Shown one piece after another: positions 6,580 to 23,270 of a DNA stretch of 34,950 bases. The notes beneath the pieces were generated by a model. That model did not search any database and had not been told where the DNA came from. It saw nothing but the letters and a program-made list of their open reading frames with translations. The position numbers and the translations under genes are program-made. The stretch comes from Frankiales bacterium (GTDB taxonomy: Bacteria > Actinomycetota > Actinomycetes > Mycobacteriales > SCTD01), in contig JAOPWK010000076.1 of NCBI GenBank assembly GCA_025965735.1, forward strand, positions 1 to 34,950. Reading direction: 5' to 3'. Each line of letters opens with the position of its first letter. Position 1 is the first letter of the stretch.

Positions 6580-8820
6580 GTGCTGCTGACCCGCCTCGCC
6601 GGCCTGGCGGTTGCCCGCCGGCGGATCGTCCTCGTCACGACCGCGCTGTTCCTCGCACTGGCCGGGGTCCTGGGCGGCGGCGTCGCCGCGGAGCTGTCCG
6701 GGGGCGGTTTCGACGACCCCGACGCCGAGTCCGTCCGCGCGGCGCAGCTCCTGGAGGAGCAGTTCGGTAGCGGTGTCCCGAACCTGGTGCTGCTGGCCGA
6801 GGCCCGCGCCGGCGTGGACGACCCGGCGGCGGTCGCCGCCGGGGAGGCGCTCGTGAAGCGACTGTCCGCCGAGCCGGGGGTCGTGCAGGTCACCAGCTGG
6901 TGGACCTCCGGCCGACCCGACTCGCTCAAGGCCCAGGACGGCAGCAGCGCTGTGGTGCTGGCGCGGCTCACCGGCGGTGACGAGACTGCCGTCGACCGGG
7001 TCGAGGAGCTGGCGCCGTCGTACCGCGGGAACTTCCAGGGCCTGCAGGTCCAGGTCGGTGGCCAGGCGGAGGTGTTCTCCGAGGTCGGCCACACCATCGA
7101 GCGCGACATCCTGCGGGCCGAGGCGATCGCCATCCCGATCACGATGGTGCTGCTCGTGATCGTGTTCGGCAGCGCCGTCGCCGCCGCCCTGCCGCTGCTC
7201 ATCGGCGTGATGTCGATCCTGGGGACGTTCCTCGTCCTGCACCTGCTCGCCAAGACCACCGACGTGTCCGTCTACTCCGTCAACCTCGCCACCTCGCTCG
7301 GCCTGGGGCTCGGCATCGACTACGCGCTGTTCATGGTGACCCGGCACCGCGAGGAGCTGGCCCGCGGGCTGAGCGTTCCCGCCGCCGTCATCGCGACGGT
7401 GCGGACCGCCGGCCGCACCGTGCTGTTCAGCGCGTTGACCGTGCTGCTGAGCCTGTCCGCGCTGCTCGTCTTCCCGCTCTACTTCCTGCGCTCGTTCGCC
7501 TACGCGGGCATCGCGGCCGTGGTGTTCGCGGCGCTGGGAGCGGTGGTCGTGCTGCCCGCGGCACTGGCCGCCCTGGGGCACCGCGTGGACAGCCTCGACC
7601 TGCGGCGCCCGCTGCGGCGGCTGCTGGGCCTGCCGGCGCCGCGCCCCAAGGCGCTGGACGAGGGCTTCTGGAGTCGCATCGCGCACGGCGTCATGCGCCG
7701 GCCGCTGCCCGTCGCCACGTCCGTCGTCGCGCTGCTGCTGCTCGCGGCGGTGCCCTTCGGCAGCGTCGTCTTCGGCCTGCCCGACGATCGGGTGCTGCCC
7801 AAGGACGCCCCCGCCTTCCAGGTCGCGGAGACCCTGCGCGCGGAGTACCCGGGCCGGGAGTCGCAGGCGCTCAGCGTCGTCGCGCCCCGTGCCTCCGGTG
7901 ACCCCGCCTCGTACGCCAGGGCGCTGTCCGTGGTCGACGGCGTGGAGCGGGTCGACGCCGCCACCGGCAGCTGGGTCGGCGGCCGGCAGGTCACCGAGCA
8001 GGGCACACGGGGCATGGCCGCCGGCGGCGGCACCTTCCTGCGCGTCGTGCCGTCGGTGGAGTCGTACGGACCGGAGGGCGAGCAGCTGGTCCGCGACGTA
8101 CGCGCGGTCCCGTCGCCGATCGGCGAGGTGCTCGTCGAGGGCCAGGCGGCCAGCCTGGTCGACACCAAGTCCTCGCTGCGGGCCGACCTGCCGCTGGCGC
8201 TCGGGCTCATCTTCGGGACGACCTTCGTGCTGCTGTTCCTGTTCACCGGCAGCCTGCTGATCCCCGTGAAGGCACTGGTGCTCAACGTGCTGTCGCTGTG
8301 CGCGACGTTCGGCGCGATGGTCTGGGTGTTCCAGCAGGGCAACCTCATCGGACTGGTCGGCGACCCGGTGGTCACCGGAACGCTCGACACGACGATCCCG
8401 ATCCTCATGTTCTGCCTGCTGTTCGGGCTGTCGATGGACTACGAGGTCTTCCTGCTGTCGCGCATCAAGGAGGTGTGGGACCAGACCGGCGACAACACCC
8501 GTGCGGTGGCCGTCGGCCTGCAGCGGACCGGGAGGATCGTCACCGCCGCCGCGGGGCTGCTCGCGATCGTGTTCCTCGCCTTCATCAGCAGCGACATCAG
8601 CTTCATCAAGCTGCTCGGCCTCGGGACCGCGCTCGCGATCGTGGTGGACGCAACGTTGATCCGCGGCGCGCTGGTCCCGGCCTTCATGCGCCTGGCCGGC
8701 CGGGCGAACTGGTGGGCTCCCGCACCCCTGCGACGGCTGCACGACCGCTTCGGCCTGAGCGAGGCGGAGCCGGTGAGGGAGGATGTGGTCGTGCCCCCTC
8801 GCGTACCCGCCGGTGTCTGA
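6580..8820 (+). CDS. MMPL/RND-superfamily membrane transporter (paralog 2)
   Basis: VLLTRLAGLAVARRRIVLVTTALFLALAGVLGG N-terminus, GIDYALFMVTRHRE and FGLSMDYEVFLLSRIKE. GTG 6580 is in frame with the 6403 track ORF and is preceded by GGGGGA. Confidence 0.85.
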   Translation: MLLTRLAGLAVARRRIVLVTTALFLALAGVLGGGVAAELSGGGFDDPDAESVRAAQLLEEQFGSGVPNLVLLAEARAGVDDPAAVAAGEALVKRLSAEPGVVQVTSWWTSGRPDSLKAQDGSSAVVLARLTGGDETAVDRVEELAPSYRGNFQGLQVQVGGQAEVFSEVGHTIERDILRAEAIAIPITMVLLVIVFGSAVAAALPLLIGVMSILGTFLVLHLLAKTTDVSVYSVNLATSLGLGLGIDYALFMVTRHREELARGLSVPAAVIATVRTAGRTVLFSALTVLLSLSALLVFPLYFLRSFAYAGIAAVVFAALGAVVVLPAALAALGHRVDSLDLRRPLRRLLGLPAPRPKALDEGFWSRIAHGVMRRPLPVATSVVALLLLAAVPFGSVVFGLPDDRVLPKDAPAFQVAETLRAEYPGRESQALSVVAPRASGDPASYARALSVVDGVERVDAATGSWVGGRQVTEQGTRGMAAGGGTFLRVVPSVESYGPEGEQLVRDVRAVPSPIGEVLVEGQAASLVDTKSSLRADLPLALGLIFGTTFVLLFLFTGSLLIPVKALVLNVLSLCATFGAMVWVFQQGNLIGLVGDPVVTGTLDTTIPILMFCLLFGLSMDYEVFLLSRIKEVWDQTGDNTRAVAVGLQRTGRIVTAAAGLLAIVFLAFISSDISFIKLLGLGTALAIVVDATLIRGALVPAFMRLAGRANWWAPAPLRRLHDRFGLSEAEPVREDVVVPPRVPAGV

Positions 8821-9487
8821 AGCGACCGTCCGTCGACGTGCGCCGCGCGGTCGTGGCGCGGAGCTGCGCGGCGACGTGCTGCGCGCGGCGATGGAGCTGC
8901 TCACCGAGACCGGCGACGAGTCGGCCGTGTCCGTGCGCGCCGTGGCGCAGCGGGTCGGGGTCAGCGTGCCGAGCATCTACCTGCACTTCGCGGACAAGCG
9001 CGCGCTCATCGACGCCGTCTGCGGAGAGGTCTTCGAGGCGCTGCACCAGCGGCTGCGCGCCGCAGCCGAGCAGGCCGAGGACCCCTTCGCGGCGCTCCGG
9101 GCGCAGGGCAACGCGTACGTCCACTTCGCGCTGGAGAACCCCGAGCACTACCGCGTCGTGATGATGCAGGCGCACGAGCCGGCGCAGGAGTCCGTCGACA
9201 GCGTCGTGGCGAGCGGCGCGTTCGCCTACCTGGTGAGCACGGTGCAGGAGTGCGTCGACATCGGCGTGCTGGAGGGCGAGGCGGTGGAGCTGGCCCTTGG
9301 GCTCTGGGCCGCGGCGCACGGCGTGGCCGCGCTGCTGGTCGCCAAGCCGTACTTCCCGTGGCCGGAGGTCGACGCCTTCGTCGACCGGACCATCTGCATG
9401 GCCGGCCTGGGTCTGGCCGCCGCCGCGCGAGTGGACAGCTCGGCTCCGCTCGGCGACCTGCAGGAGCGGCTCGACCGGCTGCGCTGA
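8783..9487 (+). CDS. TetR/AcrR-family transcriptional regulator
   Basis: LRGDVLRAAMELLTETGDESAVSVRAVAQRVGVSVPSIYLHFADKRALIDAV is a TetR HTH. The start is either ATG 8783 or GTG 8813; the latter overlaps the MMPL2 stop as GTGTCTGA. Either way it overlaps the MMPL2 3' end, suggesting translational coupling. Confidence 0.85.
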   Translation: MWSCPLAYPPVSEATVRRRAPRGRGAELRGDVLRAAMELLTETGDESAVSVRAVAQRVGVSVPSIYLHFADKRALIDAVCGEVFEALHQRLRAAAEQAEDPFAALRAQGNAYVHFALENPEHYRVVMMQAHEPAQESVDSVVASGAFAYLVSTVQECVDIGVLEGEAVELALGLWAAAHGVAALLVAKPYFPWPEVDAFVDRTICMAGLGLAAAARVDSSAPLGDLQERLDRLR

Positions 9488-14651: not shown

Positions 14652-14724
14652 GTCCCCATCGTCTAGCGGCCCAGGACTCCACCCTTTCAAGGTGGCTACG
14701 CGGGTTCGAATCCCGTTGGGGGCA
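14652..14724 (+). tRNA. tRNA-Glu (anticodon UUC)
   Basis: GTCCCCA TC GTCT AGCGGCCCA GGAC T CCACC CTTTCAA GGTGG CTAC GCGGG TTCGAAT CCCGT TGGGGGC A; 73 nt. Confidence 0.9.
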
Positions 14725-14778
14725 CGGCAGTCCAGTACGGCACGGCACGGCACAGCACAAAGGCCCGGTTCCACACCA

Positions 14779-14852
14779 GGCCCCGTAGCGCAGTTGGTTA
14801 GCGCGCCGCCCTGTCACGGCGGAGGTCGCGGGTTCGAGTCCCGTCGGGGTCG
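14779..14852 (+). tRNA. tRNA-Asp (anticodon GUC)
   Basis: GGCCCCG TA GCGC AGTTGGTTA GCGC G CCGCC CTGTCAC GGCGG AGGTC GCGGG TTCGAGT CCCGT CGGGGTC G; 74 nt. Confidence 0.92.
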
Positions 14853-14865
14853 CAGCACCACACCT

Positions 14866-14938
14866 GGTCAGGTAGCTCAGCTGGTAGAGCACACGCCTGA
14901 AAAGCGTGGGGTCGGCGGTTCGACCCCGCCCCTGACCA
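14866..14938 (+). tRNA. tRNA-Phe (anticodon GAA)
   Basis: GGTCAGG TA GCTC AGCTGGTA GAGC A CACGC CTGAAAA GCGTG GGGTC GGCGG TTCGACC CCGCC CCTGACC A; 73 nt. Confidence 0.92.
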
Positions 14939-14980
14939 CCCCTCATCCCCGCCAGCGGTCGCCGGCCATGGAGGTGCTCC

Positions 14981-15580
14981 GTGAGCAGCCCTCTCGACGC
15001 GGTCGTCCCGCTCGCCGGCGCTGTGCCCGGCGTGGCCTCGGCCACCGCGGAGGCACCGCACGCCGTGCGCGTCCGGCTGCTGCCCGGTGCGGACGGCGCC
15101 GAGGTCGCGCTTGCCGTGGGTCGGCTGCTCGCCGGCACGGCAGCCGGCGCGGAGCGTCATGTCCTGACCGTCCCGCAGCAGCACCGCCCCGGCCGGGCCC
15201 GGATCGACCGGCTGGACCTGCACACCGACGGTGCGTCCTTCAGCGTCGGCATCGCGCTGTCGTGCGCCGGGCGCAGCGCGACCGCCAGCGCGCGCAGCGG
15301 TACGACGGGCGCGGGGACCCGCCGAGCCGTCGCCGACGCCACGCTCCAGGCGGTCACCGGGCTGCTCGCCCACCCGGTGCACCTCGAGGTCGACCACGTC
15401 GAGCGCAGCGACGCCGGCGCGGCCCCCGTCGTCCTGGTGCAGGTCAGCCTCGTGAGCGGCGAGGGCGTGCAGCGGCTGGCCGGCTCGGCCGTGGTGCAGG
15501 ACGGCGAGGGCGACGCCGTCGTCCGCGCGACCCTGGACGCCGTGAACCGGCGCGTGGAGGCTCTGCTCGCCCCGGCGTGA
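14981..15580 (+). CDS. Hypothetical protein, paralog A of the '...LDAVNRR' pair
   Basis: 199-aa ORF. The GTG start is preceded by GGAGG at 6-nt spacing. The C-terminal half aligns with the 20064-20717 product (RRAVADATLQAV / HRMAAEATLAAL; DAVVRATLDAVNRRV / DAVARAVLDAVNRRL). I recognise no known domain. Confidence 0.65.
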   Translation: MSSPLDAVVPLAGAVPGVASATAEAPHAVRVRLLPGADGAEVALAVGRLLAGTAAGAERHVLTVPQQHRPGRARIDRLDLHTDGASFSVGIALSCAGRSATASARSGTTGAGTRRAVADATLQAVTGLLAHPVHLEVDHVERSDAGAAPVVLVQVSLVSGEGVQRLAGSAVVQDGEGDAVVRATLDAVNRRVEALLAPA

Positions 15581-15640
15581 GCCCCGCGCAGGTGCTTGCT
15601 CGTGTGTACGGTGCCGCGCAACAGCGGAGCGAGGGACGAC

Positions 15641-16480
15641 ATGAGCCAGACGGCGCGTGCCGACAGGGCGGTCGAGGCCGCCCTGCCTGCTGTCGCGCCC
15701 TCGGGCCCGCAGCAGCTGCCGGAGACGCTGCACGCCCTGCTGCTGTCGGCCTGCCAGGCTGCTGGGCTGCTCACCCTGGAGCTCGAGGTGACCGGCTGCC
15801 CGGGGCTCGCCACCACCGTCCGGCGACCTGCGCAGGTGCCGGAGCTGGTGGTCTGGGCCTCGCACGTAGCGGCGTCCCGGTGGCACGGCGGCGTGGCCCT
15901 GCTCGCCTCCGCTCCCGACGCCGGGCCGGAGCGACGGGTGGTCGTGGAGCACGCCGCCAGGACGATCAGCGAACTCGTGGCCGCGGAGCTGCGCGCCACC
16001 CAGGCAGAGACGCTGGCCCAGCGCGCGCTCGAGCTGGCCGGCGTCGACGCGCTGACGCAGGTCGGCAACCGCCGGACCTGGGAGCGCGCGCTGGACGACG
16101 AGGCGCGGCGCGCACGGCGCTACCGGACGCCGACCGCGGTGTGCGTGCTCGACCTGGACGGCCTCAAGCGGATCAACGACGAGCACGGGCATGCCGCCGG
16201 CGACGCCTACCTCCGACGTGCCGCGCAGGCCGTGCGTGCGGTGGCCCGCAGCGTCGACGTCATCTGCCGGCTCGGCGGCGACGAGTTCGGGCTGCTGGCG
16301 CCGCAGACGGACGCGGACGGGGCCCACCGGCTGGCCGCACGGCTGCGGGAGGCGCTGGACGTGGGCGCGGTCTCCGCCAGCGTCGGCGTCGCCACCGCCG
16401 AGGACGGCGGGCTGGACGAGGCATGGCAGGCGGCCGACGCCGACATGTACGGCGACAAGCGGGCGCGCTCGGGCCGCTAG
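15641..16480 (+). CDS. Diguanylate cyclase (GGDEF) with an uncharacterised, possibly GAF-like, N-terminal region
   Basis: DALTQVGNRRTWERALDDE...VCVLDLDGLKRINDEHGHAAGDAYLRRAA...RSVDVICRLGGDEFGLL shows an intact GGDEF motif and an RxxD I-site 5 residues upstream. ATG 15641 has GGAGCGAGGGA upstream; an alternative ATG is at 15596. Confidence 0.85.
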   Translation: MSQTARADRAVEAALPAVAPSGPQQLPETLHALLLSACQAAGLLTLELEVTGCPGLATTVRRPAQVPELVVWASHVAASRWHGGVALLASAPDAGPERRVVVEHAARTISELVAAELRATQAETLAQRALELAGVDALTQVGNRRTWERALDDEARRARRYRTPTAVCVLDLDGLKRINDEHGHAAGDAYLRRAAQAVRAVARSVDVICRLGGDEFGLLAPQTDADGAHRLAARLREALDVGAVSASVGVATAEDGGLDEAWQAADADMYGDKRARSGR

Positions 16481-17694
16481 CCGGAGCGGGCGAGCAGCTC
16501 TCTCGCAGCAGCGGCCACGACGTCGCCCCGGTCGCTGACGATGACGTCGTAGCGGTCCGCGCCCGCAGGCGTCGCCACCATCACCTGCGACACCGCCGGC
16601 CCCAGCAGGACCGCCACGACGTCATCGCCGGACACGTCGCGCACGGGTACGAGGTGCCGGCCGGAACAGGCCGCCGGGGCGCCGTCACCCAGGACGACGA
16701 CGCTGAGCGCCGCCTCCCGCTGCAGCACGGGCAGGTCGCGCAGGAAGCCCTCGGGGGCCAGCGACGGGTCGGGCAGGTGCATGAGCAGCACGTTCATCCC
16801 GGCGTCCACCACCGCGGCCTGGGCGAAGCCGGCCAGGTGGTCACGGACCCAGAGCCGGTCCACGACGACCCGCGGCACGTCGGCGTCCAGCCGCCGGAGC
16901 ACGTCGTCGGGGCCACGGCGGCGCGAGGCGGTGCAGCCCGGGTCGCGCTCGACCCGCACGTCGCCGGCCGACAGCAGCCGCGGTCGCGCGAACAGGTACC
17001 CCTGCCCCCACTGCGCCCCCAGGGCGGCGGCGGCCGCGCGGTCCTGCTCGGTCTCGATGCCCTCTGCGACCAGGGTGGCGCCGCTGCGCTCGAGGTACCG
17101 CTCCACCGCCCGCAGGGTGGCCATGGGCATCGCGCCCCGGGCAGCGCGCAGCAGCGGCGCGTCCAGCTTCACCACGTCCGGCTCGATCAGCGGGAGCAGG
17201 GCGACGCTCGCCTCGTTCGCGCCGACGTCGTCCAGGGCGATCTCGCAGCCGAGGTGCCGCAGCTCGTCGACCGCGGCCAGCAGGCGGCGTGGCCCGTGCG
17301 AGAGCGCACGCTCGGTCACCTCGACGACCACGGAGACCTCGTCCGTGCCGTCGACCCAGTCCGCGAGCAGGTCCTCGGGGCAGCTGCTGCCCAGGACCTC
17401 GGGCTCGGTGTTGAGGAACAGCCGCCAAGCCGGCCGCCGCGGCGAGCAGGCGCGGACGTCGCGCAGTGCGGCCACCCGGCAGGCCCAGTCCATCTCGCGG
17501 AGCCGCCCCTCAAGGCGCGCCTGCGCGAACAGCTCCGGCGGCCGCTCCCACGGCGAGCCGAGCGGCCCGCGGGCCAGCGCCTCGTACCCGATGACCTCCT
17601 CGGTCTGCAGGTCCACGATCGGCTGGAAGAGCATGCTGAGGATCGCGGTCGCCGTCGAGCGCAGCAGCGGAAGCGGCTGCACCTCTGCGCTCAC
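16477..17694 (-). CDS. EAL-domain c-di-GMP phosphodiesterase with a ~150-aa C-terminal extra domain (possibly DICT-like)
   Basis: LFQPIVDLQTEEVIGYEALARGP, FLNTEP, EVTE, ALDDVG, KLD, LVAEGIETE and GQGYLF account for all canonical EAL catalytic motifs. The C-terminal region (...VVVLGDGAP...DDVVAVLLGPAVSQVMVA...YDVIVSDRGDVVAAAARELL) is unassigned. GTG start follows GAGGGGGA. Confidence 0.85.
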   Translation of the reverse strand: MSAEVQPLPLLRSTATAILSMLFQPIVDLQTEEVIGYEALARGPLGSPWERPPELFAQARLEGRLREMDWACRVAALRDVRACSPRRPAWRLFLNTEPEVLGSSCPEDLLADWVDGTDEVSVVVEVTERALSHGPRRLLAAVDELRHLGCEIALDDVGANEASVALLPLIEPDVVKLDAPLLRAARGAMPMATLRAVERYLERSGATLVAEGIETEQDRAAAAALGAQWGQGYLFARPRLLSAGDVRVERDPGCTASRRRGPDDVLRRLDADVPRVVVDRLWVRDHLAGFAQAAVVDAGMNVLLMHLPDPSLAPEGFLRDLPVLQREAALSVVVLGDGAPAACSGRHLVPVRDVSGDDVVAVLLGPAVSQVMVATPAGADRYDVIVSDRGDVVAAAARELLARSG

Positions 17695-17818
17695 GGGTCC
17701 CCCTCGGTCGGGCGGCGCGGAACGCCACCTCGGTCGCCATGGTCTCTGCGTCGGCGCGGCCCCACCTCACCCGCGCGCGGGATCTTGGGGCTCCCCGGAC
17801 GGGGGAGACGGGCGTTCA

Positions 17819-17847
17819 TGGACACCTCTGCGCAAGCCGCCCATACT
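17819..17847 (+). promoter_or_regulatory. Sigma70/HrdB-like promoter candidate for the peptide-HK-RR unit
   Basis: TGGACA (17819-17824), a 17-nt spacer, then CATACT (17842-17847). It lies about 88 nt upstream of the small-ORF ATG, in the 240-nt divergent region shared with the EAL gene. Confidence 0.4.
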
Positions 17848-17934
17848 GCGTGCGGCAGGACCAGCGGAGCGCAGGACGGAGATCACTGAACGAGCGGAGC
17901 GGAGCCTCAACCACCTACACAGGAGGCATTCGCG

Positions 17935-18033
17935 ATGAAGCAGATCATCCGGCTGGCGGTCGTGGCAGTCACGACCGTCGCAGCGATCGTCGGTTCGACC
18001 TCAGCAGCTGGCGCCACCGTCAACTGGGGCTGA
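17935..18033 (+). CDS. Unannotated 32-aa small ORF: Sec-type pre-peptide or small membrane peptide (MKQIIRLAVVAVTTVAAIVGSTSAAGATVNWG)
   Basis: ATG is preceded by AGGAGG at 8-9 nt spacing (acAGGAGGcattcgcgATG). About 80% GC3. It has a basic n-region (MKQIIR), a hydrophobic h-region and a small-residue c-region (STSAAG), leaving only a 6-7 residue C-terminal tail (G)ATVNWG. It is followed by a strong hairpin. It is not in the ORF track (too short) and is masked by the over-extended 17739 ORF in another frame. Confidence 0.6.
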   Translation: MKQIIRLAVVAVTTVAAIVGSTSAAGATVNWG

Positions 18034-18044
18034 CCGAGGACCGC

Positions 18045-18089
18045 GGCGTCCGGCGGGCACGGGCGAGCAGCCCGCCCCCGCCGGACGCC
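18045..18089 (+). terminator. Strong GC hairpin (attenuator or partial terminator) between the small ORF and the histidine kinase
   Basis: GGCGTCCGGCGGG (18045-18057) pairs perfectly with CCCGCCGGACGCC (18077-18089), a 13-bp stem. The loop has an inner GGGC/GCCC pairing. There is no U-tract, which is common in actinobacteria. Confidence 0.5.
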
Positions 18090-18125
18090 GTCACGTCCAC
18101 CCGCTTCCCGCTGTACGCCGGGTCC

Positions 18126-19424
18126 GTGCTGCTCGTGCTGCTCGCCCTGACGGTCATCGGCCTCGCGCAGGGGCAGTGGGCGGACGTCCCCTGGCAGGCG
18201 GCGCTGTTCTGGTGCGCCATCTGCGGCCTGGCCAACCTGCTCGCTGCGCCGGCAGCCGGGCACACCTACCTCAGCATGAGCGCCCCGGTGAACATCGCCA
18301 TCGCCGTGCTCTTCCCACCGGCGGTCGCCGCTGTCCTGGTCGCCGTCGGGTCGGTGTCGCAGCTGGAGGTCCAGCGCCTGACGACGCCGCTGCGCGCCGG
18401 GTTCAACCGGACGCAGATCGGGCTGTGCACGGCCGCTGCCTCCCTGGTCCTGTCGCTGCGACCGGACCCGGTGCTCTGGACGGTGCTCCTGGCCGTCGTC
18501 ACGTACCACCTCGTGAACTGGACGCTGGTCGCCGGCGCCGAGCGCTCCCTGCGCGGCACGCCGGTGGTGCGGGTGCTCGCCGGCTTCCTGCCGCGCGGCG
18601 TCGTCGCGACCGGCACGTACCTCTCGCTGGGCGCCATGGGCGTGGTGCTGGGACTCGTCTACGGGGACATCGGCCCCTGGGCCGTGGCCCTCCTGCTGCT
18701 GCCACTGGCCGGCGCCCGCCAGGCGGTGCGAGCGACCGAGGACATCCAGCGCGTCGAGCGCGAGCGGCGCGAGCTCGCCGACCGCCTGGTCGAGGAGCGC
18801 GAGGGCGAGCGCCTGCGCATCGCCAGCGACCTGCACGACACCGTGCTGCAGAACCTGGCCGCTGTGCAGGTGCAGGCGGACAACGTCAGCGCCGCCGTGC
18901 AGCGGGCGGATCCGCGCGGCGCCGAGCTGGCGGGTGCACTGCGGACCGGGGTCGACGGCACCATCTCCGACGTGCGGCGCGTCATCGCCAATCTCCGGCA
19001 CGCCGGCATCGACGGCGACGGGCTCATCCCGACCGTCAAGCGGTACGCCGACGCGTTCTCGCGGCACGCAGGCTGCGCCGTCGACGTCCGGATCAGCGGT
19101 CCGGTCGAGTCGCTGCCCACGCCGATCGCCCTGCTGCTGCTGGAGTCCTGCCAGGAGGCGCTCACCAACGTCGCCCGGCACGCCGACGCCGGCAGCGTGC
19201 TCGTCCACGTCGAGGTGCACACCGGCCAGGTGGAGCTGCGCGTGGAGGACGACGGCCGCGGGTTCGCCAGCGACGCGGAGCCGAACGGCTTCGGCCTGCG
19301 CCTCACCCGGGAGAAGCTGGCGCTGGTCGGCGGGGGCTGCTGGGTCTCCAGCGCCCCCGGTCGGGGCACCCAGGTCGTCGTGCGTGTCCCGCTGCTGCCG
19401 GGTGGAGGCGGCCATGGCGAGTAG
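18126..19424 (+). CDS. Sensor histidine kinase, HisKA_3/HATPase_c (NarL-partner class), with a ~7-TM N-terminal domain and no sizeable extracytoplasmic loop
   Basis: H-box ERLRIASDLHDTVLQNL, N-box QEALTNVARHA, G1 EDDGRGF, G2 GFGLRLTREKL. About 220 N-terminal residues form roughly 7 hydrophobic segments. The first canonical in-frame start after the small ORF and hairpin is GTG 18126. The track ORF from 17739 runs through the small ORF region and is over-extended. Confidence 0.8.
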   Translation: MLLVLLALTVIGLAQGQWADVPWQAALFWCAICGLANLLAAPAAGHTYLSMSAPVNIAIAVLFPPAVAAVLVAVGSVSQLEVQRLTTPLRAGFNRTQIGLCTAAASLVLSLRPDPVLWTVLLAVVTYHLVNWTLVAGAERSLRGTPVVRVLAGFLPRGVVATGTYLSLGAMGVVLGLVYGDIGPWAVALLLLPLAGARQAVRATEDIQRVERERRELADRLVEEREGERLRIASDLHDTVLQNLAAVQVQADNVSAAVQRADPRGAELAGALRTGVDGTISDVRRVIANLRHAGIDGDGLIPTVKRYADAFSRHAGCAVDVRISGPVESLPTPIALLLLESCQEALTNVARHADAGSVLVHVEVHTGQVELRVEDDGRGFASDAEPNGFGLRLTREKLALVGGGCWVSSAPGRGTQVVVRVPLLPGGGGHGE

Positions 19425-20067
19425 GCAGCAGCCCGTCCGCGTCGCCATCGCCGAGGACCACGCGCTCGTGGCGGAGGCGCTCGCGACGATGTTCTCGCTC
19501 GTGGACGGCTTCGAGGTGGTCGGCAGCGTGACCTCGGGCGACGACGCCGTCGCGCTGGCAGAGCGGCTGCGTCCGGACGTCTTCCTCATGGACGTCGCCC
19601 TCGTGGGCCTGAACGGCCTGGAGGCGACGCGGCAGATCACCGCCAAGGCCCCAGAGGTGCAGGTCCTGGTCCTGACCATGCACGACGACGCCGCCACCGT
19701 GGCCCGGGCCGTGGCGGCGGGAGCCGCCGGCTTCGTGCCGAAGAACGCCAAGCGGGAGGTGCTCTTCCGCGCCGTGGAGGCGCTGGCCGAGGGAGGGGGC
19801 TACCTCGACGAGCAGGTCATGCGGCCGTTCCTGTCGGCGGTGCAGCCGCTGGTGGACGACCTCATGTCCGGGGAGCGGCTGACCGAGCGGGAGCTGGACG
19901 TGCTGCGCCTGCTCAGCCACGGCCGCTCCACCCGCGACATCGCCCAGGCGCTCGTGGTGTCCGACGAGACCGTGAAGTCGCACCTGACGCACATCTACCA
20001 GAAGCTCGGTGTCGGCGACCGCACCTCCGCGGTGGCCCTCGCCCTGCGCCGGGGGCTGGTCTCCTAG
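19414..20067 (+). CDS. Response regulator, NarL/LuxR family (REC + LuxR HTH)
   Basis: MASRQQPVRVAIAEDHALVAEAL...DVFLMDVALVGLNGLEA...LTERELDVLRLLSHGRSTRDIAQALVVSDETVKSHLTHIYQKLGV. ATG follows GGAGG and overlaps the HK 3' end by 11 nt. Confidence 0.9.
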   Translation: MASRQQPVRVAIAEDHALVAEALATMFSLVDGFEVVGSVTSGDDAVALAERLRPDVFLMDVALVGLNGLEATRQITAKAPEVQVLVLTMHDDAATVARAVAAGAAGFVPKNAKREVLFRAVEALAEGGGYLDEQVMRPFLSAVQPLVDDLMSGERLTERELDVLRLLSHGRSTRDIAQALVVSDETVKSHLTHIYQKLGVGDRTSAVALALRRGLVS

Positions 20068-20717
20068 GTCCGCAGTCGGCGGTTGACGGCGTCGAGCACG
20101 GCCCGCGCCACCGCGTCCAGCTCACCGGCTGCGCGGACCGTCGCGGTGCCGATGAGGACGTCCTCCGCGCCCGACATGCGGTGCGCGAGGCTCACCAGCG
20201 CGACCCGGCGCACGCCGAGCGGCCGCACCTCCACGCCGTCGACGTCGCTGCTCGGCAGCCCCGGGTGCAGCTCCACCAGCGCGGCGAGCGTGGCCTCGGC
20301 AGCCATCCGGTGCAGGCCGACCGCGGTGCTCGAGCGGTGCGAACCGCCGGTCGCACGCCGCTGGTCGCGGCTCAGGACGACGCTGACCGACGAGGAGCCG
20401 TGCTGGCTCTGCAGGGTCATCCCGACCAGCAGCGTCCGTCCGTCAGGAGCGGGCTGCAGGTCCTGCGCCGGCGCCGACGCCGGAGTGCCCTCTTCCTCGA
20501 GCTGGACGACGGAGACGACGTTGCGGTCCACCTCGACGCCGAAGGCCGCACGGACCAGCGACTGCACGTCGCGGACCACCTGCTTGGGGTGCTTGCCGGG
20601 GGTGGCGACGATGTGCAGCTCGAGGACGGAGTCCCGCTCGTCCGGCACGACGTGGGCGCGGGTGACGTGCGGGATGCGGCACAGCGCCCGCTCCACGTCC
20701 GGCCAGTCGATGCTCAT
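20064..20717 (-). CDS. Hypothetical protein, paralog B of the '...LDAVNRR' pair
   Basis: 217-aa ORF, MSIDWPDVERALCRIPHVTRAHVVPDERDSVLELHIVATPGKHPKQVVRDVQ... The C-terminal half aligns with the 14981-15580 product and ends ...DAVARAVLDAVNRRLRT. The stop overlaps the RR stop in CTAG. No obvious SD. Confidence 0.65.
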   Translation of the reverse strand: MSIDWPDVERALCRIPHVTRAHVVPDERDSVLELHIVATPGKHPKQVVRDVQSLVRAAFGVEVDRNVVSVVQLEEEGTPASAPAQDLQPAPDGRTLLVGMTLQSQHGSSSVSVVLSRDQRRATGGSHRSSTAVGLHRMAAEATLAALVELHPGLPSSDVDGVEVRPLGVRRVALVSLAHRMSGAEDVLIGTATVRAAGELDAVARAVLDAVNRRLRT

Positions 20718-20762: not shown

Positions 20763-20808
20763 GCAGACAGCGCCGCACCCCCTCGCGGGAGTGCGGCGCT
20801 GCTGTCTG
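20763..20808 (-). terminator. Hairpin downstream of bldC
   Basis: GCAGACAGCGCCGCAC ... GTGCGGCGCTG(CTG)TCTG gives about 15 bp of stem with a 3-nt bulge, starting 12 nt after the bldC stop on the minus strand. Confidence 0.5.
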
Positions 20809-20819
20809 GGCTGGGGGTG

Positions 20820-21026
20820 CTAGGCCTGCGGGCGCGGCGCCGGGATGCCGGCGAGCAGCGCGCGGACCTCGGCCTCGCGGTAGCGGCGGTGGCCGCCGAG
20901 GGTGCGGATCGAGGTGAGCTTGCCGGACTTGGCCCAGCGGGTGACGGTCTTGGGGTCGACGCGGAACATGGTCGCGACCTCAGCCGGGGTGAGCAGGGCC
21001 TCGGAGTCAGGGGTGCGTGTGCTCAT
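20820..21026 (-). CDS. bldC: BldC, small MerR-like/excisionase-type DNA-binding developmental regulator
   Basis: MSTRTPDSEALLTPAEVATMFRVDPKTVTRWAKSGKLTSIRTLGGHRRYREAEVRALLAGIP is near-identical to my recollection of Streptomyces BldC. ATG 21026 gives 68 aa, and GAGAGGAC lies upstream. Confidence 0.9.
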   Translation of the reverse strand: MSTRTPDSEALLTPAEVATMFRVDPKTVTRWAKSGKLTSIRTLGGHRRYREAEVRALLAGIPAPRPQA

Positions 21027-21140: not shown

Positions 21141-22001
21141 TCAGCTGGAGGACTCCACCGCCTGCAGCGCTTTCATGCGTGCGGTGACGCGGGTGTACGC
21201 CGCCGCCGCGCGGTCGGTGTCGCCCTCCGCGAGCGCCGCCAGGGCCAGCGCCACGTCGCGGGCGGACTCGTCCTGGCTCAGCTCGGCGTCGTCCAGCAGG
21301 TGCACCAGTCCGCCGTAGTCGAGCTCGACCAGGGACCTCGGGTGGAACTCCTCCAGCCATCGGCCGAGGTCCTCCACATCCGCCGTCACCACGCCGTCCT
21401 CCACCGTGCGCCGCAGCACCGCCAGCGCCCGCGCCACACGGCGGCGGGCCCTCGACATGGGCGTCCGGTAGACCAGCGAGCGCCCGGTGCGCACTGCACC
21501 TTGTCCTGGTGACGGCCCGAGGTGCACCTCCCGCTCCCCGGCGTCCACGAGCACGAACCAGCGCAGCGGCACGTGCCAGGTGGAGGTCAGCTGCGGCACC
21601 CGCTCGTCGGGGTGGGCCAAACGGTGCGCGTCCAGCTCCTCGCCCACCGACGCGGCCAGCGGCGCCGGCACCCACGCCGAGACCAGCTCGCGCGGCACGT
21701 CGGACAGGAACTCCTCGAGCGCCTCCAGCGACCGCAGGCGGGTGCGCCAGGGGCAGAGCAGCGTCACGCCGTCGACCTCGGTGACGTACGCGTGCTCCGG
21801 CAGCTCGGGCAGCACCGCCGGGACCAGCCCGACCAGCGCCTGCAGCGCCGCCTCGTGCTCCAGAGCCGCGCCGGCGGACGTGCCGGGCGCCTCCTGCTCG
21901 GCCAGGTAGGCCTCCCAGCGCTGGCGCTCGGCGCCCTCGAACGCAGCCAGCGGCTCGTAGACCCGCAGGTAGGCCGTGTGGCCCGCCCGGTGCGCCGTCA
22001 T
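21141..22001 (-). CDS. Conserved actinobacterial hypothetical protein, the syntenic gene between bldC and vdh
   Basis: 286-aa ORF with good coding character ([33 protein letters not shown]...). Its position matches the hypothetical gene between bldC and vdh in Streptomyces. Confidence 0.7.
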
Positions 22002-22175
22002 CCCCGGATGCTCGCACGCAGCGCCCGCACGGGGCGACGAGGGCCGAGGCCCGGAGCCTGCTCGCTACCCTTGCTGCGGGGCACACCACCTCCGCACGAC
22101 GCTGCGCCTCACGAGGGCGTGGCGACCACCCGCCGACCGGCGACGCCGGCGGCCTTCTCTCGCAGGGAGCACGCC

Positions 22176-23270
22176 GTGGGCGTCTTCGACCGGACCGACC
22201 ACCTCAAGGACGCCGGGCACGAGCAGGTGGTGTTCTGCCAGGACCGGGCCAGCGGCCTGAAGGCGATCATCGCGGTCTACTCGACCGCCCTCGGGCCGGC
22301 GCTGGGCGGCACGCGCTTCTACCCGTACGCCAGCGAGGACGACGCCCTCGAGGACGTCCTCAAGCTCAGCAAGGCGATGGCCTACAAGGCGGCGTGCAGC
22401 GGCATCGACCTCGGCGGCGGCAAGGCCGTGATCATCGGTGACCCCACCCGCGACAAGACCGAGGCGCTGCTGCGGGCGTACGGCCGTTTCGTCCAGTCGC
22501 TGGGCGGCCGGTACTACACGGCCTGCGACGTCGGCACCTACGTCCAGGACATGGACGTCATCGCCAAGGAGACCGACTTCGCCACCGGCCGCTCGCCGGA
22601 GAACGGCGGCGCGGGCGACAGCGCCGTTCTCACGGCCTTCGGCGTCTTCCAGGCGATGCGCGCCGCCGCGGAGCACACCTGGGGCGGCCCGACGCTGCAC
22701 GGCAAGCGGGTCGCGGTCGAGGGCGTCGGCAAGGTCGGCCACCACCTCGTGGAGCACCTGGTCCAGGACGGCGCCACCGTCGTCGTCAGCGACGTGAGCG
22801 CAGCCGCCCTCGAGCGGGTGCGCGCGGCGTTCCCGCAGGTCGAGGTGCTCGACGTCGACGCGCTGCGCACGGCCGAGATGGACGTGTACGCCCCCTGCGC
22901 GCTGGGCGGCTCGGTGTCCGACGAGCTGGTGCCGGTGCTGCAGGCCAAGGTCGTCTGCGGCGCCGCCAACAACCAGCTCGAGCACCCCGGCATCGAGAAG
23001 TCGCTGGCCGACCGCGGTGTCCTCTACGCGCCGGACTACGTCGCCAACGCCGGCGGGCTGTGCCAGGTCGCGGACGAGGCGCTGCACGACCAGTTCTCGT
23101 TCGCCCGGGCCGAGGCCAAGGCCGCCACCATCTACGACACCACGCTGTCGATCTTCCGGCTGGCTGACAGCGAGGGCGTGCCGCCGGCCGTGGCCGCCGA
23201 CCGGCTCGGCGAGCGCCGGATGGCCGACGTCGGCCGCCTGCGCAGCGTCCTGGTGCCCGGCCGCAGCTGA
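22176..23270 (+). CDS. vdh: Valine/leucine dehydrogenase (Glu/Leu/Phe/Val dehydrogenase family)
   Basis: From GTG 22176, with AGGGAG 6 nt upstream: (V)[50 protein letters not shown]...[18 protein letters not shown]...GVGKVGHHL. The track ORF from 21522 is over-extended. Confidence 0.9.

Follow-up and report, generated by a model that had tools for sequence, protein, structure and literature searches.

The present analysis concerns a compact cluster of seven genes of a Frankiales bacterium (assembly GCA_025965735.1, contig JAOPWK010000076.1), found in a stretch of DNA of 34,950 nucleotides (nt) that is referred to as the window throughout. The cluster, at positions 14,981 to 20,717, lies between the gene for tRNA-Phe and bldC and encodes, in this order, a protein here called paralog A, a GGDEF cyclase, an EAL phosphodiesterase, the product of a 32-codon small open reading frame (mini-ORF), a HisKA_3 sensor kinase, a LuxR-type response regulator and a second border protein, paralog B. 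Among the second messengers of actinobacterial development, cyclic di-GMP (c-di-GMP) is the main one, and we read the region, with moderate confidence, as a self-contained, vertically conserved local c-di-GMP module that includes two ligand-binding accessory proteins, A and B. This reading draws on the gene content, on the intact motifs of the enzymes and of the kinase, on the predicted folds and the family membership of the border proteins, and on a synteny that holds across lineages and genomic contexts. A wider proposal, which we put forward only tentatively, is that A and B represent an unrecognised, Actinomycetota-wide class of second-messenger receptors or regulators, which would act in complex with a membrane mini-protein of about 30 residues and with MASE9-like domains.

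The seven-gene cassette as a unit

All of the seven genes that an earlier note on this DNA had placed between tRNA-Phe and bldC are present, with small corrections to their coordinates (Table 1). In particular, the cyclase carries a GGDEF domain (PF00990, E = 3.7e-31, 108.5 bits against a cutoff of 23.8; TIGR00254, 113 bits) in which the motifs RSVD-VICRL-GGDEF, at residues ~218-231 of the ORF of 294 amino acids (aa), are intact and include an RxxD I-site five residues upstream of GGDEF, and the EAL domain (PF00563, E = 8.5e-38, 130.5 bits against a cutoff of 31.3) keeps the complete set of catalytic motifs YEALAR, LFLN, EVTE, DDVG, KLD, EGIE and QGY. The kinase joins a hydrophobic N-terminal portion of ~195 residues, with about six to seven predicted membrane segments, to HisKA_3 (PF07730, 51.3 bits) and HATPase_c (PF02518, 52.9 bits) domains with an intact H-box, DLHD. 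The regulator, whose start overlaps the stop of the kinase gene by 11 nt, consists of REC (88 bits) and GerE (63.9 bits) domains and has the Asp of VFLMDVAL at the expected phospho-acceptor position. Judged by these motifs, the cyclase, the phosphodiesterase, the kinase and the regulator look active, and both the enzymes and the two-component system are ordinary representatives of established families. No membrane segment is predicted in A, B or the cyclase; in the C-terminal domain of the EAL protein the membrane scan flagged one weak hydrophobic stretch (359-377), and the protein is read as cytosolic. Neither this C-terminal domain (~165 aa) nor the N-terminal domain of the cyclase (~135 aa) has a match in Pfam or NCBIfam.

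Copies of the cassette were found in no fewer than five diverged metagenomic lineages and in three genomic contexts, two of which have neither bldC nor the tRNAs. In L005, whose paralog B is 81% identical to that of the window, all seven genes are found with flanks as in the window. In L007 (B 61% identical) all seven stand in the same order among unrelated flanks, and the identity to the window is 75% for the regulator, 71% for the kinase, 61% for the EAL protein, 54% for the GGDEF protein and 40% for A. L176 (B 59% identical) represents the third context and keeps B, the regulator, the kinase, the mini-ORF, the EAL gene and an A-like gene; the stand-alone cyclase is missing. At this locus (L176:4815-7905) the A-like gene directly adjoins the EAL gene and is oriented divergently to a gene for a 745-aa GGDEF-EAL protein, which may stand in for the missing cyclase as partner. 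L178 and L092 contain partial copies, in a context like that of the window. The proposal, made from the window alone, that these genes work as a unit is thus borne out by neighbourhood conservation, since their order is kept at all three levels of divergence of B and, in two cases, between different flanks.

These data also bear on a very different explanation, namely that the cluster is a recent genomic island at tRNA-Phe whose juxtaposed genes have no functional relation, an explanation so improbable that we reject it. The cluster does begin 39 nt beyond the end of the tRNA-Phe gene and, in relatives, the cassette occupies other chromosomal sites, as an island might. However, it contains no integrase or recombinase, the 25-nt 3' end of tRNA-Phe, with up to three mismatches allowed, matches the tRNA gene alone in the window, so that there is no att-like repeat, and the G+C content, high in the whole window (0.69-0.77), is much the same in the cluster (0.73-0.77) as elsewhere (0.69-0.75). 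Furthermore, the insertion site is kept in relatives diverged to 57-81% identity, and the genes inside keep their order in every copy.

The association with bldC, which the earlier note had named as the context of the cluster, is specific to one lineage. The adjacent gene is a bona fide bldC (NF033787, 107.1 bits against a cutoff of 77); nevertheless, bldC is absent beside the cassette in both L007 and L176, so its adjacency is not a property of the cassette, and bldC is ruled out as an obligatory partner.

Paralogs A and B and their family

The two border proteins match one family profile, give confident AlphaFold2 models of the same topology (pLDDT, predicted local distance difference test, 86.6 for A and 89.5 for B) and are 30% identical (BLASTP, E = 1e-9), and each of them as a tblastn query recovers the gene of the other; neither has a match in Pfam or NCBIfam. 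Of the initial idea that two copies of one protein border the cluster, the paralogy stands and the simple duplicated pair does not. In fact, A is ~40% identical to a separate subfamily of 214-aa proteins, to which it is nearer than to B, and it has lost the polar residues that are invariant in the N-terminal domain (N-domain) of B-type proteins, E33, H35, K42, Q46, R49 and D50 (motif KHPKQVVRD). Since A is nearer to this other subfamily, A and B are ancient paralogs from two subfamilies and not the product of a local duplication. At L172:8001-10134 the gene of the 214-aa subfamily sits after Ku and LigD and before the gene for a 462-aa protein of no assigned function, and a radius of 8 kb contains no c-di-GMP genes.

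The family is large. At least 950 relatives of B were obtained in a word-indexed search, and a profile built from 58 members matched, among 1.84 billion representatives, 3,174 clusters (50% identity) at E <= 1e-3, of which 1,901 reach E <= 1e-10. These belong mostly to Actinomycetota, and all of the named members are annotated as "hypothetical protein" and come from metagenome-assembled genomes (MAGs) of Acidimicrobiia, Coriobacteriia/Anaerosomatales, Frankiales (among them the MAG of the window, with the locus tags JWM62_723 and JWM62_729) and Segeticoccus. Cassettes of this type are rare: 185,579 species-representative genomes yielded no close relative of B, the best being 45% identical, and a single close one was found in the JGI metagenome scan.

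The predicted topology of both proteins comprises an alpha-beta-beta-alpha-beta N-domain, a disordered linker and a C-terminal domain (C-domain) of ~120 residues formed by two beta-beta-beta-alpha repeats. In the models, the C-domain is like the allosteric domain of LeuA and citramalate synthase. The top Foldseek match of B is LeuA of Mycobacterium tuberculosis (1sr9_B, E = 1.4e-5, probability 1.0), and those of A, again at probability 1.0, are the leucine-bound form of the same enzyme (3fig_B, E = 1.4e-4) and the isoleucine-bound regulatory domain of Leptospira LiCMS (3f6g_B); 3hps_B too was matched at probability 1.0. The corresponding sequence family, LeuA_dimer (PF08502), is matched at E <= 1 by 14 of 32 aligned relatives (best E = 7.7e-6), A and B of the window themselves being unmatched; the family profile gave nothing significant against PDB sequences, and the link of the family to solved LeuA structures comes from fold comparison alone. 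A Foldseek comparison with viral structures returned weak, uninformative matches resembling double-stranded RNA-binding domains. The N-domain, degenerate in A, is reminiscent of ferredoxin-like modules such as the C-subdomain of AMP-binding enzymes, the C-terminal domains of cation-diffusion facilitators and HMA. The C-domain residues that all subfamilies conserve are mainly Arg, Asp and Asn (R94, R137, R195, R205, D209, N212, R213 and R214 in the numbering of B), and the C-terminal helix carries the motif D-x-V-x-R-A-x-L-D-A-x-N-R-R, which resembles the helix of LeuA. Unlike LeuA and citramalate synthase, A and B are stand-alone proteins of ~200 aa, which have the ferredoxin-like N-domain in place of the catalytic TIM barrel, and, unlike in the LeuA domain, their family-specific conserved residues are mostly arginines.

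The neighbourhoods of the family outside the cassette were counted on 159 unique loci, retrieved by similarity to B and mostly from Acidimicrobiia. In the typical layout the genes for DUF5317 (+), a degenerate membrane HD protein (-), a membrane HD_5 protein (-) and a mini-ORF (-) are followed, divergently from the latter, by those for the family protein (+), a GT1 glycosyltransferase (+) and a small protein with two transmembrane segments (2-TM; +). A divergent membrane HD_5 gene lies within 5 kb of the family gene at 78 of 89 loci (~88% of those examinable), and the degenerate membrane HD paralog and DUF5317 are near it at 66 and 67 of 72 loci, respectively; co-directional with the family gene are GT1 (68 of 103 loci) and the 2-TM protein (88 of 103). 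The best PDB relatives of the HD_5 proteins are the HD-GYP enzymes V-cGAP3, PmGH and PA4781; they keep HD...GK and ADAxDAMTSxRxYR, and the HHE..GYP motif is replaced, for example by SSEHSRFRPV in L010 (as aligned to 5z7c and 4mcw). In L174 and L175, which belong to a subfamily whose named members come from Coriobacteriia/Anaerosomatales MAGs, the genes are arranged on one strand, upstream of secA, in the order hpf, family protein, mini-ORF, HD_5, degenerate HD and DUF5317.

In eight Acidimicrobiales-type loci the HD_5 operon includes a gene for a 258-aa GGDEF protein, and in six of these eight a second, divergent, A-like member of the family was detected at the position it has in L179, after the GGDEF gene (L179 copy, E = 7.8e-10 with the family profile). 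The possibility that the cassette and these operons share the same cyclase was rejected, since the GGDEF domains alone align (41%) and the N-terminal domains show no detectable relation (hhalign probability 1.3%). Taken together, the HD_5 synteny and the Acidimicrobiales-type loci indicate that two arrangements, a B-type protein beside a membrane sensor and an A-like protein beside a small cyclase, recur outside the cassette. The suggestion that the border proteins are components and not passengers gains support from this recurrence, and because the family repeatedly adjoins membrane-bound second-messenger enzymes, A and B are good candidates for new signalling parts.

Two further arrangements were seen around the family. 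In the Acidimicrobiia locus L008 (8321-9241) a gene for a MEDS + HATPase_c_2 protein, an anti-sigma-factor-like kinase, stands between the HD_5 operon and the family gene, and in L082, L093, L096, L097, L158 and L164 the mini-ORF/HD_5 operon is preceded by a gene for a small BldC-like helix-turn-helix protein, which adjoins that for the family protein. The BldC-like proteins of these six loci from other lineages score 66 bits with NF033787, below its cutoff of 77; a regulator of BldC type is thus met again near the system, although the cassette does not include bldC.

What A and B do in such neighbourhoods could be understood in different ways. The LeuA fold suggests inputs, i.e., metabolite sensors, whereas an arginine-rich conserved surface, together with the linkage to GT1, suggests outputs, i.e., nucleotide receptors. 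In the second case A and B would form a new receptor class for c-di-GMP, or a related nucleotide, that reads the local pool and acts downstream, for example on GT1; we give this a lower, though not negligible, probability. The control of glycosyltransferases is a classic output of c-di-GMP, and the frequencies of GT1 after B-type genes and of divergent genes of the HD-GYP superfamily agree with such a role, as do the A-like members that adjoin GGDEF genes in two lineages. In addition, a C-domain conservation dominated by Arg, Asp and Asn would fit a negatively charged ligand more readily than a hydrophobic amino acid. On the other hand, the nearest fold binds leucine or isoleucine, the GT1 gene is absent from the cassette, A and B match no Pfam or NCBIfam family, and none of the classical c-di-GMP-binding signatures (PilZ, I-site, MshEN) is evident in them, although no systematic scan was made.

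GT1 and the 2-TM protein are also the commonest same-strand neighbours of the family, and A and B could accordingly have a role in the cell envelope or in metabolism, with such proteins as partners; their position at the borders would then be accidental and the core of the cluster would be reduced to the GGDEF and EAL enzymes and the two-component system. The subfamily near Ku/LigD would fit this explanation, and so would the rate at which A changes, as it is the fastest-evolving gene of the cassette (36-40% identity, against 75-78% for the regulator). We hold it to be improbable, because the four cassette copies of which both ends are available all retain A and B even after relocation, because B is convergent with the regulator gene wherever a contig carries a cassette-type B, and because A-like members are found again beside a GGDEF gene in a distant lineage.

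The mini-ORF and the membrane domain of the kinase

The sensor of the module can be related to the HD_5 proteins described above through its membrane domain. This domain is homologous to that of more than 70 HD_5 proteins (hhalign probability 98%, E = 2e-13, 101 columns), and residues 184-265 of the kinase ORF match MASE9 (PF20972) with E = 3.8e-4 and 20.9 bits, below the cutoff of 24.3. Since the HD_5 proteins of the related loci have no MASE9 match at E <= 0.01, the shared domain may be a relative of MASE9 and not MASE9 proper.

A second element shared with these loci is the mini-ORF. Clustering the ORFs located between the HD_5 gene and the family gene, a procedure in which the other clusters were mostly out-of-frame noise, brought out mini-ORFs of 24-32 codons with the pattern MK(K/R)xxVRxA...(L/V)(L/V)LAGGA, after which come three to six variable residues, often with W and a basic residue at the end. 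One of this type precedes the membrane HD_5 gene in 83 of 115 non-cassette loci, and mini-ORFs similar to that of the window stand before membrane HD_5 genes in more than 110 loci (L008-L171; examples are L010:2906-2995, L179:8255-8344 and L174:~8805-8879). It is listed as a called gene in L008, in L179 and in the cassette copies, and not in L009, L010, L174 and L175, and it looks like an unannotated small-protein family of three actinobacterial classes. The mini-ORF of the window shares both the plan of these sequences and their position directly before the sensor gene.

Five copies of the cassette have the mini-ORF called as a gene. The DNA differences across it fall mostly at third codon positions, its ribosome-binding site is conserved, and its 13 C-terminal residues, GSTSAAGA(T/S)VNWG, are identical in four of the five copies, the fifth (L007) showing one conservative T-to-S change. 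The only sigma-70-like promoter match of the region, also conserved, is upstream of the mini-ORF (17819-17847, TGGACA-17-CATACT). The leader between this match and the mini-ORF (17848-17934) contains two invariant direct repeats, AGCGGAGCG, 30 nt apart, and a predicted hairpin (GCGGAGCCUC / GAGGCAUUCGC) in which an anti-Shine-Dalgarno sequence pairs with the GGAGG site and masks it; both are found in the five copies, across which the hairpin shows no covariation. Repeats and hairpin could be binding sites of the regulator or a means of translational control. A known RNA element was considered for this leader and discarded, as there was no match in Rfam.

The mini-ORF had been taken for a pre-peptide providing a cue to the kinase. 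In such a scheme, cleavage by the Sec pathway after AGA would free the pentapeptide TVNWG, which the kinase would sense in a quorum-sensing circuit like that of ComX, ComP and ComA. The N-terminus does resemble a signal peptide with an AxA-like site, the tail is essentially invariant within the cassette, and the order of a small ORF, a polytopic HisKA_3 kinase and a NarL/LuxR-type regulator is also that of Bacillus subtilis ComQXPA. Nevertheless, we think a secreted peptide quite improbable. Unlike ComQXPA, no cassette copy has a ComQ-like modifying enzyme (prenyltransferase) or a peptide exporter. Across the wider family, moreover, the LLLAGGA core is conserved and the tail of three to six residues varies, the opposite of what is expected of a ligand. 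Finally, the same type of mini-ORF accompanies proteins that are not kinases, the HD_5 enzymes, with a homologous membrane domain, which fits a membrane-embedded subunit. Because it is the hydrophobic core, and not the tail, that is conserved family-wide, and because the mini-ORF goes with the membrane domain whatever the output, its product is, on the strength of these sequences, more probably a single-pass membrane mini-protein and partner of the sensor than a secreted cue.

Layout, proposed mechanism and comparison with known systems

The coordinates of the region are collected in Table 1. From the arrangement of the genes we infer the transcription units A-GGDEF (rightward), EAL (leftward), mini-ORF-kinase-regulator (rightward) and B (leftward), with bldC upstream of B beyond a hairpin. 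The interval from the 3' end of tRNA-Phe to the GTG start of A (14941-14981) is equally tight in L005 and L178 and leaves little room for a promoter, so the A-GGDEF unit may be reached by transcription that continues from the tRNA operon, or it may have a promoter that lies within the tRNA gene. Both convergent pairs overlap by 4 nt at their stop codons (GGDEF/EAL, 16477-16480; regulator/B, 20064-20067; the latter overlap also in L001, L005 and L176), which suggests converging transcription with possible interference. The hairpin between bldC and B is probably the terminator of bldC; since it has no T-tract, a consensus terminator scan does not call it. On the other side, the order of a DUF8083 gene, bldC and, on the far side, a Glu/Leu/Phe/Val dehydrogenase gene (window 21141-23270) is kept in L001 and L005, and we take it to resemble the bldC-vdh neighbourhood in Streptomyces.

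Table 1. Features of the cluster and of its borders (window coordinates)
Feature	Position	Strand	Remarks
tRNA-Glu, tRNA-Asp, tRNA-Phe cluster	14652..14941	+	ARAGORN, Rfam; left border in this lineage only
Paralog A	14981-15580	+	199 aa, GTG start; 60 nt before the GGDEF start codon
GGDEF cyclase gene	15641-16480	+	279 aa as called in identical contigs; start of the longest ORF at 15596
EAL phosphodiesterase gene	16477-17694	-	405 aa; PF00563
Promoter-like site and 5' leader of the mini-ORF	17819..17934	+	
Mini-ORF MKQIIRLAVVAVTTVAAIVGSTSAAGATVNWG	17935-18033	+	32 codons, GGAGG ribosome-binding site in front
Sensor histidine kinase	18126-19424	+	432 aa; HisKA_3, HATPase_c
NarL/LuxR-type response regulator	19414-20067	+	REC + GerE
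Paralog B	20064-20717	-	217 aa
GC-rich hairpin, bldC stop to B start	20764..20808	-	inverted repeats; 15-bp stem at 20768-20801
bldC	20820-21026	-	NF033787; right-hand neighbour in this lineage only, outside the cassette

In the mechanism that we propose for the c-di-GMP module, the kinase with its MASE9-like domain would pair with the 32-residue single-pass mini-protein and phosphorylate the LuxR-type regulator, which in turn may act on the divergent promoter region of 240 base pairs shared by the EAL gene and its own operon. The cytosolic GGDEF protein, with its I-site for product inhibition, would make c-di-GMP, and the cytosolic EAL protein would break it down. A and B might form dimers by way of the LeuA-like domain, which would also bind a small ligand, and modulate the adjacent proteins, A acting on the cyclase, with which it is probably co-transcribed, and B on the branch of the membrane sensor.

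Several observations weigh against this interpretation. The HD_5 neighbours lack the HHE/GYP motifs, so their connection with c-di-GMP is one of family and not of chemistry, and the Ku/LigD context, seen at one locus of the subfamily nearest to A, means that the family is not always tied to c-di-GMP genes. Given that the N-terminal domains of the cyclases are not detectably related, the pairing of a cyclase with an A-like protein may be convergent or coincidental, and the GT1 and 2-TM genes that run with B-type genes in most genomes would fit a function in the cell envelope as well. Moreover, the likeness of the mini-ORFs is one between short hydrophobic sequences, and the peptide of the window was among the seeds of the search profile.

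In the searchable literature we found no description of the A/B family, of its hdgAB-type synteny, of the conserved mini-ORF or of the cassette architecture, no papers on DUF5317, and none combining LeuA_dimer with c-di-GMP. The results link sensors of the HdgA/HdgB type with three uncharacterised elements, namely the A/B family, a mini-ORF that gene callers often miss at HD_5 loci, and DUF5317, in at least three actinobacterial classes, and they present the window as a compact variant that connects these elements with a kinase, a cyclase and an EAL phosphodiesterase. Should A and B turn out to bind a metabolite or c-di-GMP, second-messenger signalling would gain a new class of inputs or outputs, and as small, defined proteins A and B offer specialists a useful and testable lead. 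If, in particular, the tentative receptor-class proposal holds, it would give a first functional handle on the phenotype-less HD-GYP systems of the HdgA/HdgB type, and the cassette would be a variant whose sensor has exchanged an HD-GYP-like output enzyme for a kinase, the EAL and GGDEF proteins being separate.

Among known systems, the c-di-GMP circuitry of Streptomyces (BldD, RsiG-WhiG, CdgA-F, RmdA/B), considered together with BldC, is similar to the window in its GGDEF and EAL enzymes and in the adjacent gene of the BldC family; it differs in that A and B match no Pfam or NCBIfam family, those of the known c-di-GMP effectors included, and in that the adjacency to bldC is lost in two contexts of the cassette. 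Small membrane proteins that regulate sensor kinases, as in the pairs MgrB-PhoQ and SafA-PhoQ, offer a likeness of another kind, since the mini-ORF product, of ~30 residues and with one predicted membrane helix, is encoded with a membrane sensor and may act on it within the membrane. Unlike MgrB and SafA, to which it has no sequence relationship, the mini-ORF is the first gene in the operon of its sensor and is conserved in three classes of Actinomycetota, together with sensors that differ in their output domains.

The closest comparison is with hdgA and hdgB of Streptomyces venezuelae, which encode an HD-GYP protein with a six-transmembrane MASE9 domain and a degenerate HD-GYP protein with six transmembrane segments, respectively (PMC6205966), and for which no signal, partner or phenotype is known (PMC6205966; PMC13232838); according to the paper that describes MASE9 (bioRxiv 10.1101/2021.11.05.467447), HdgA is the only studied protein with this domain. 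The loci of the B family adjoin operons of the same architecture, in which a membrane HD_5 gene precedes a gene for a degenerate membrane HD protein. The HD_5 proteins, to whose membrane domain that of the window kinase is homologous, differ from HD-GYP phosphodiesterases in their missing HHE/GYP motifs. Unlike the hdgA-hdgB system, the window has no HD-GYP gene, and its sensor is joined to a HisKA_3 kinase output and accompanied by a soluble EAL phosphodiesterase.

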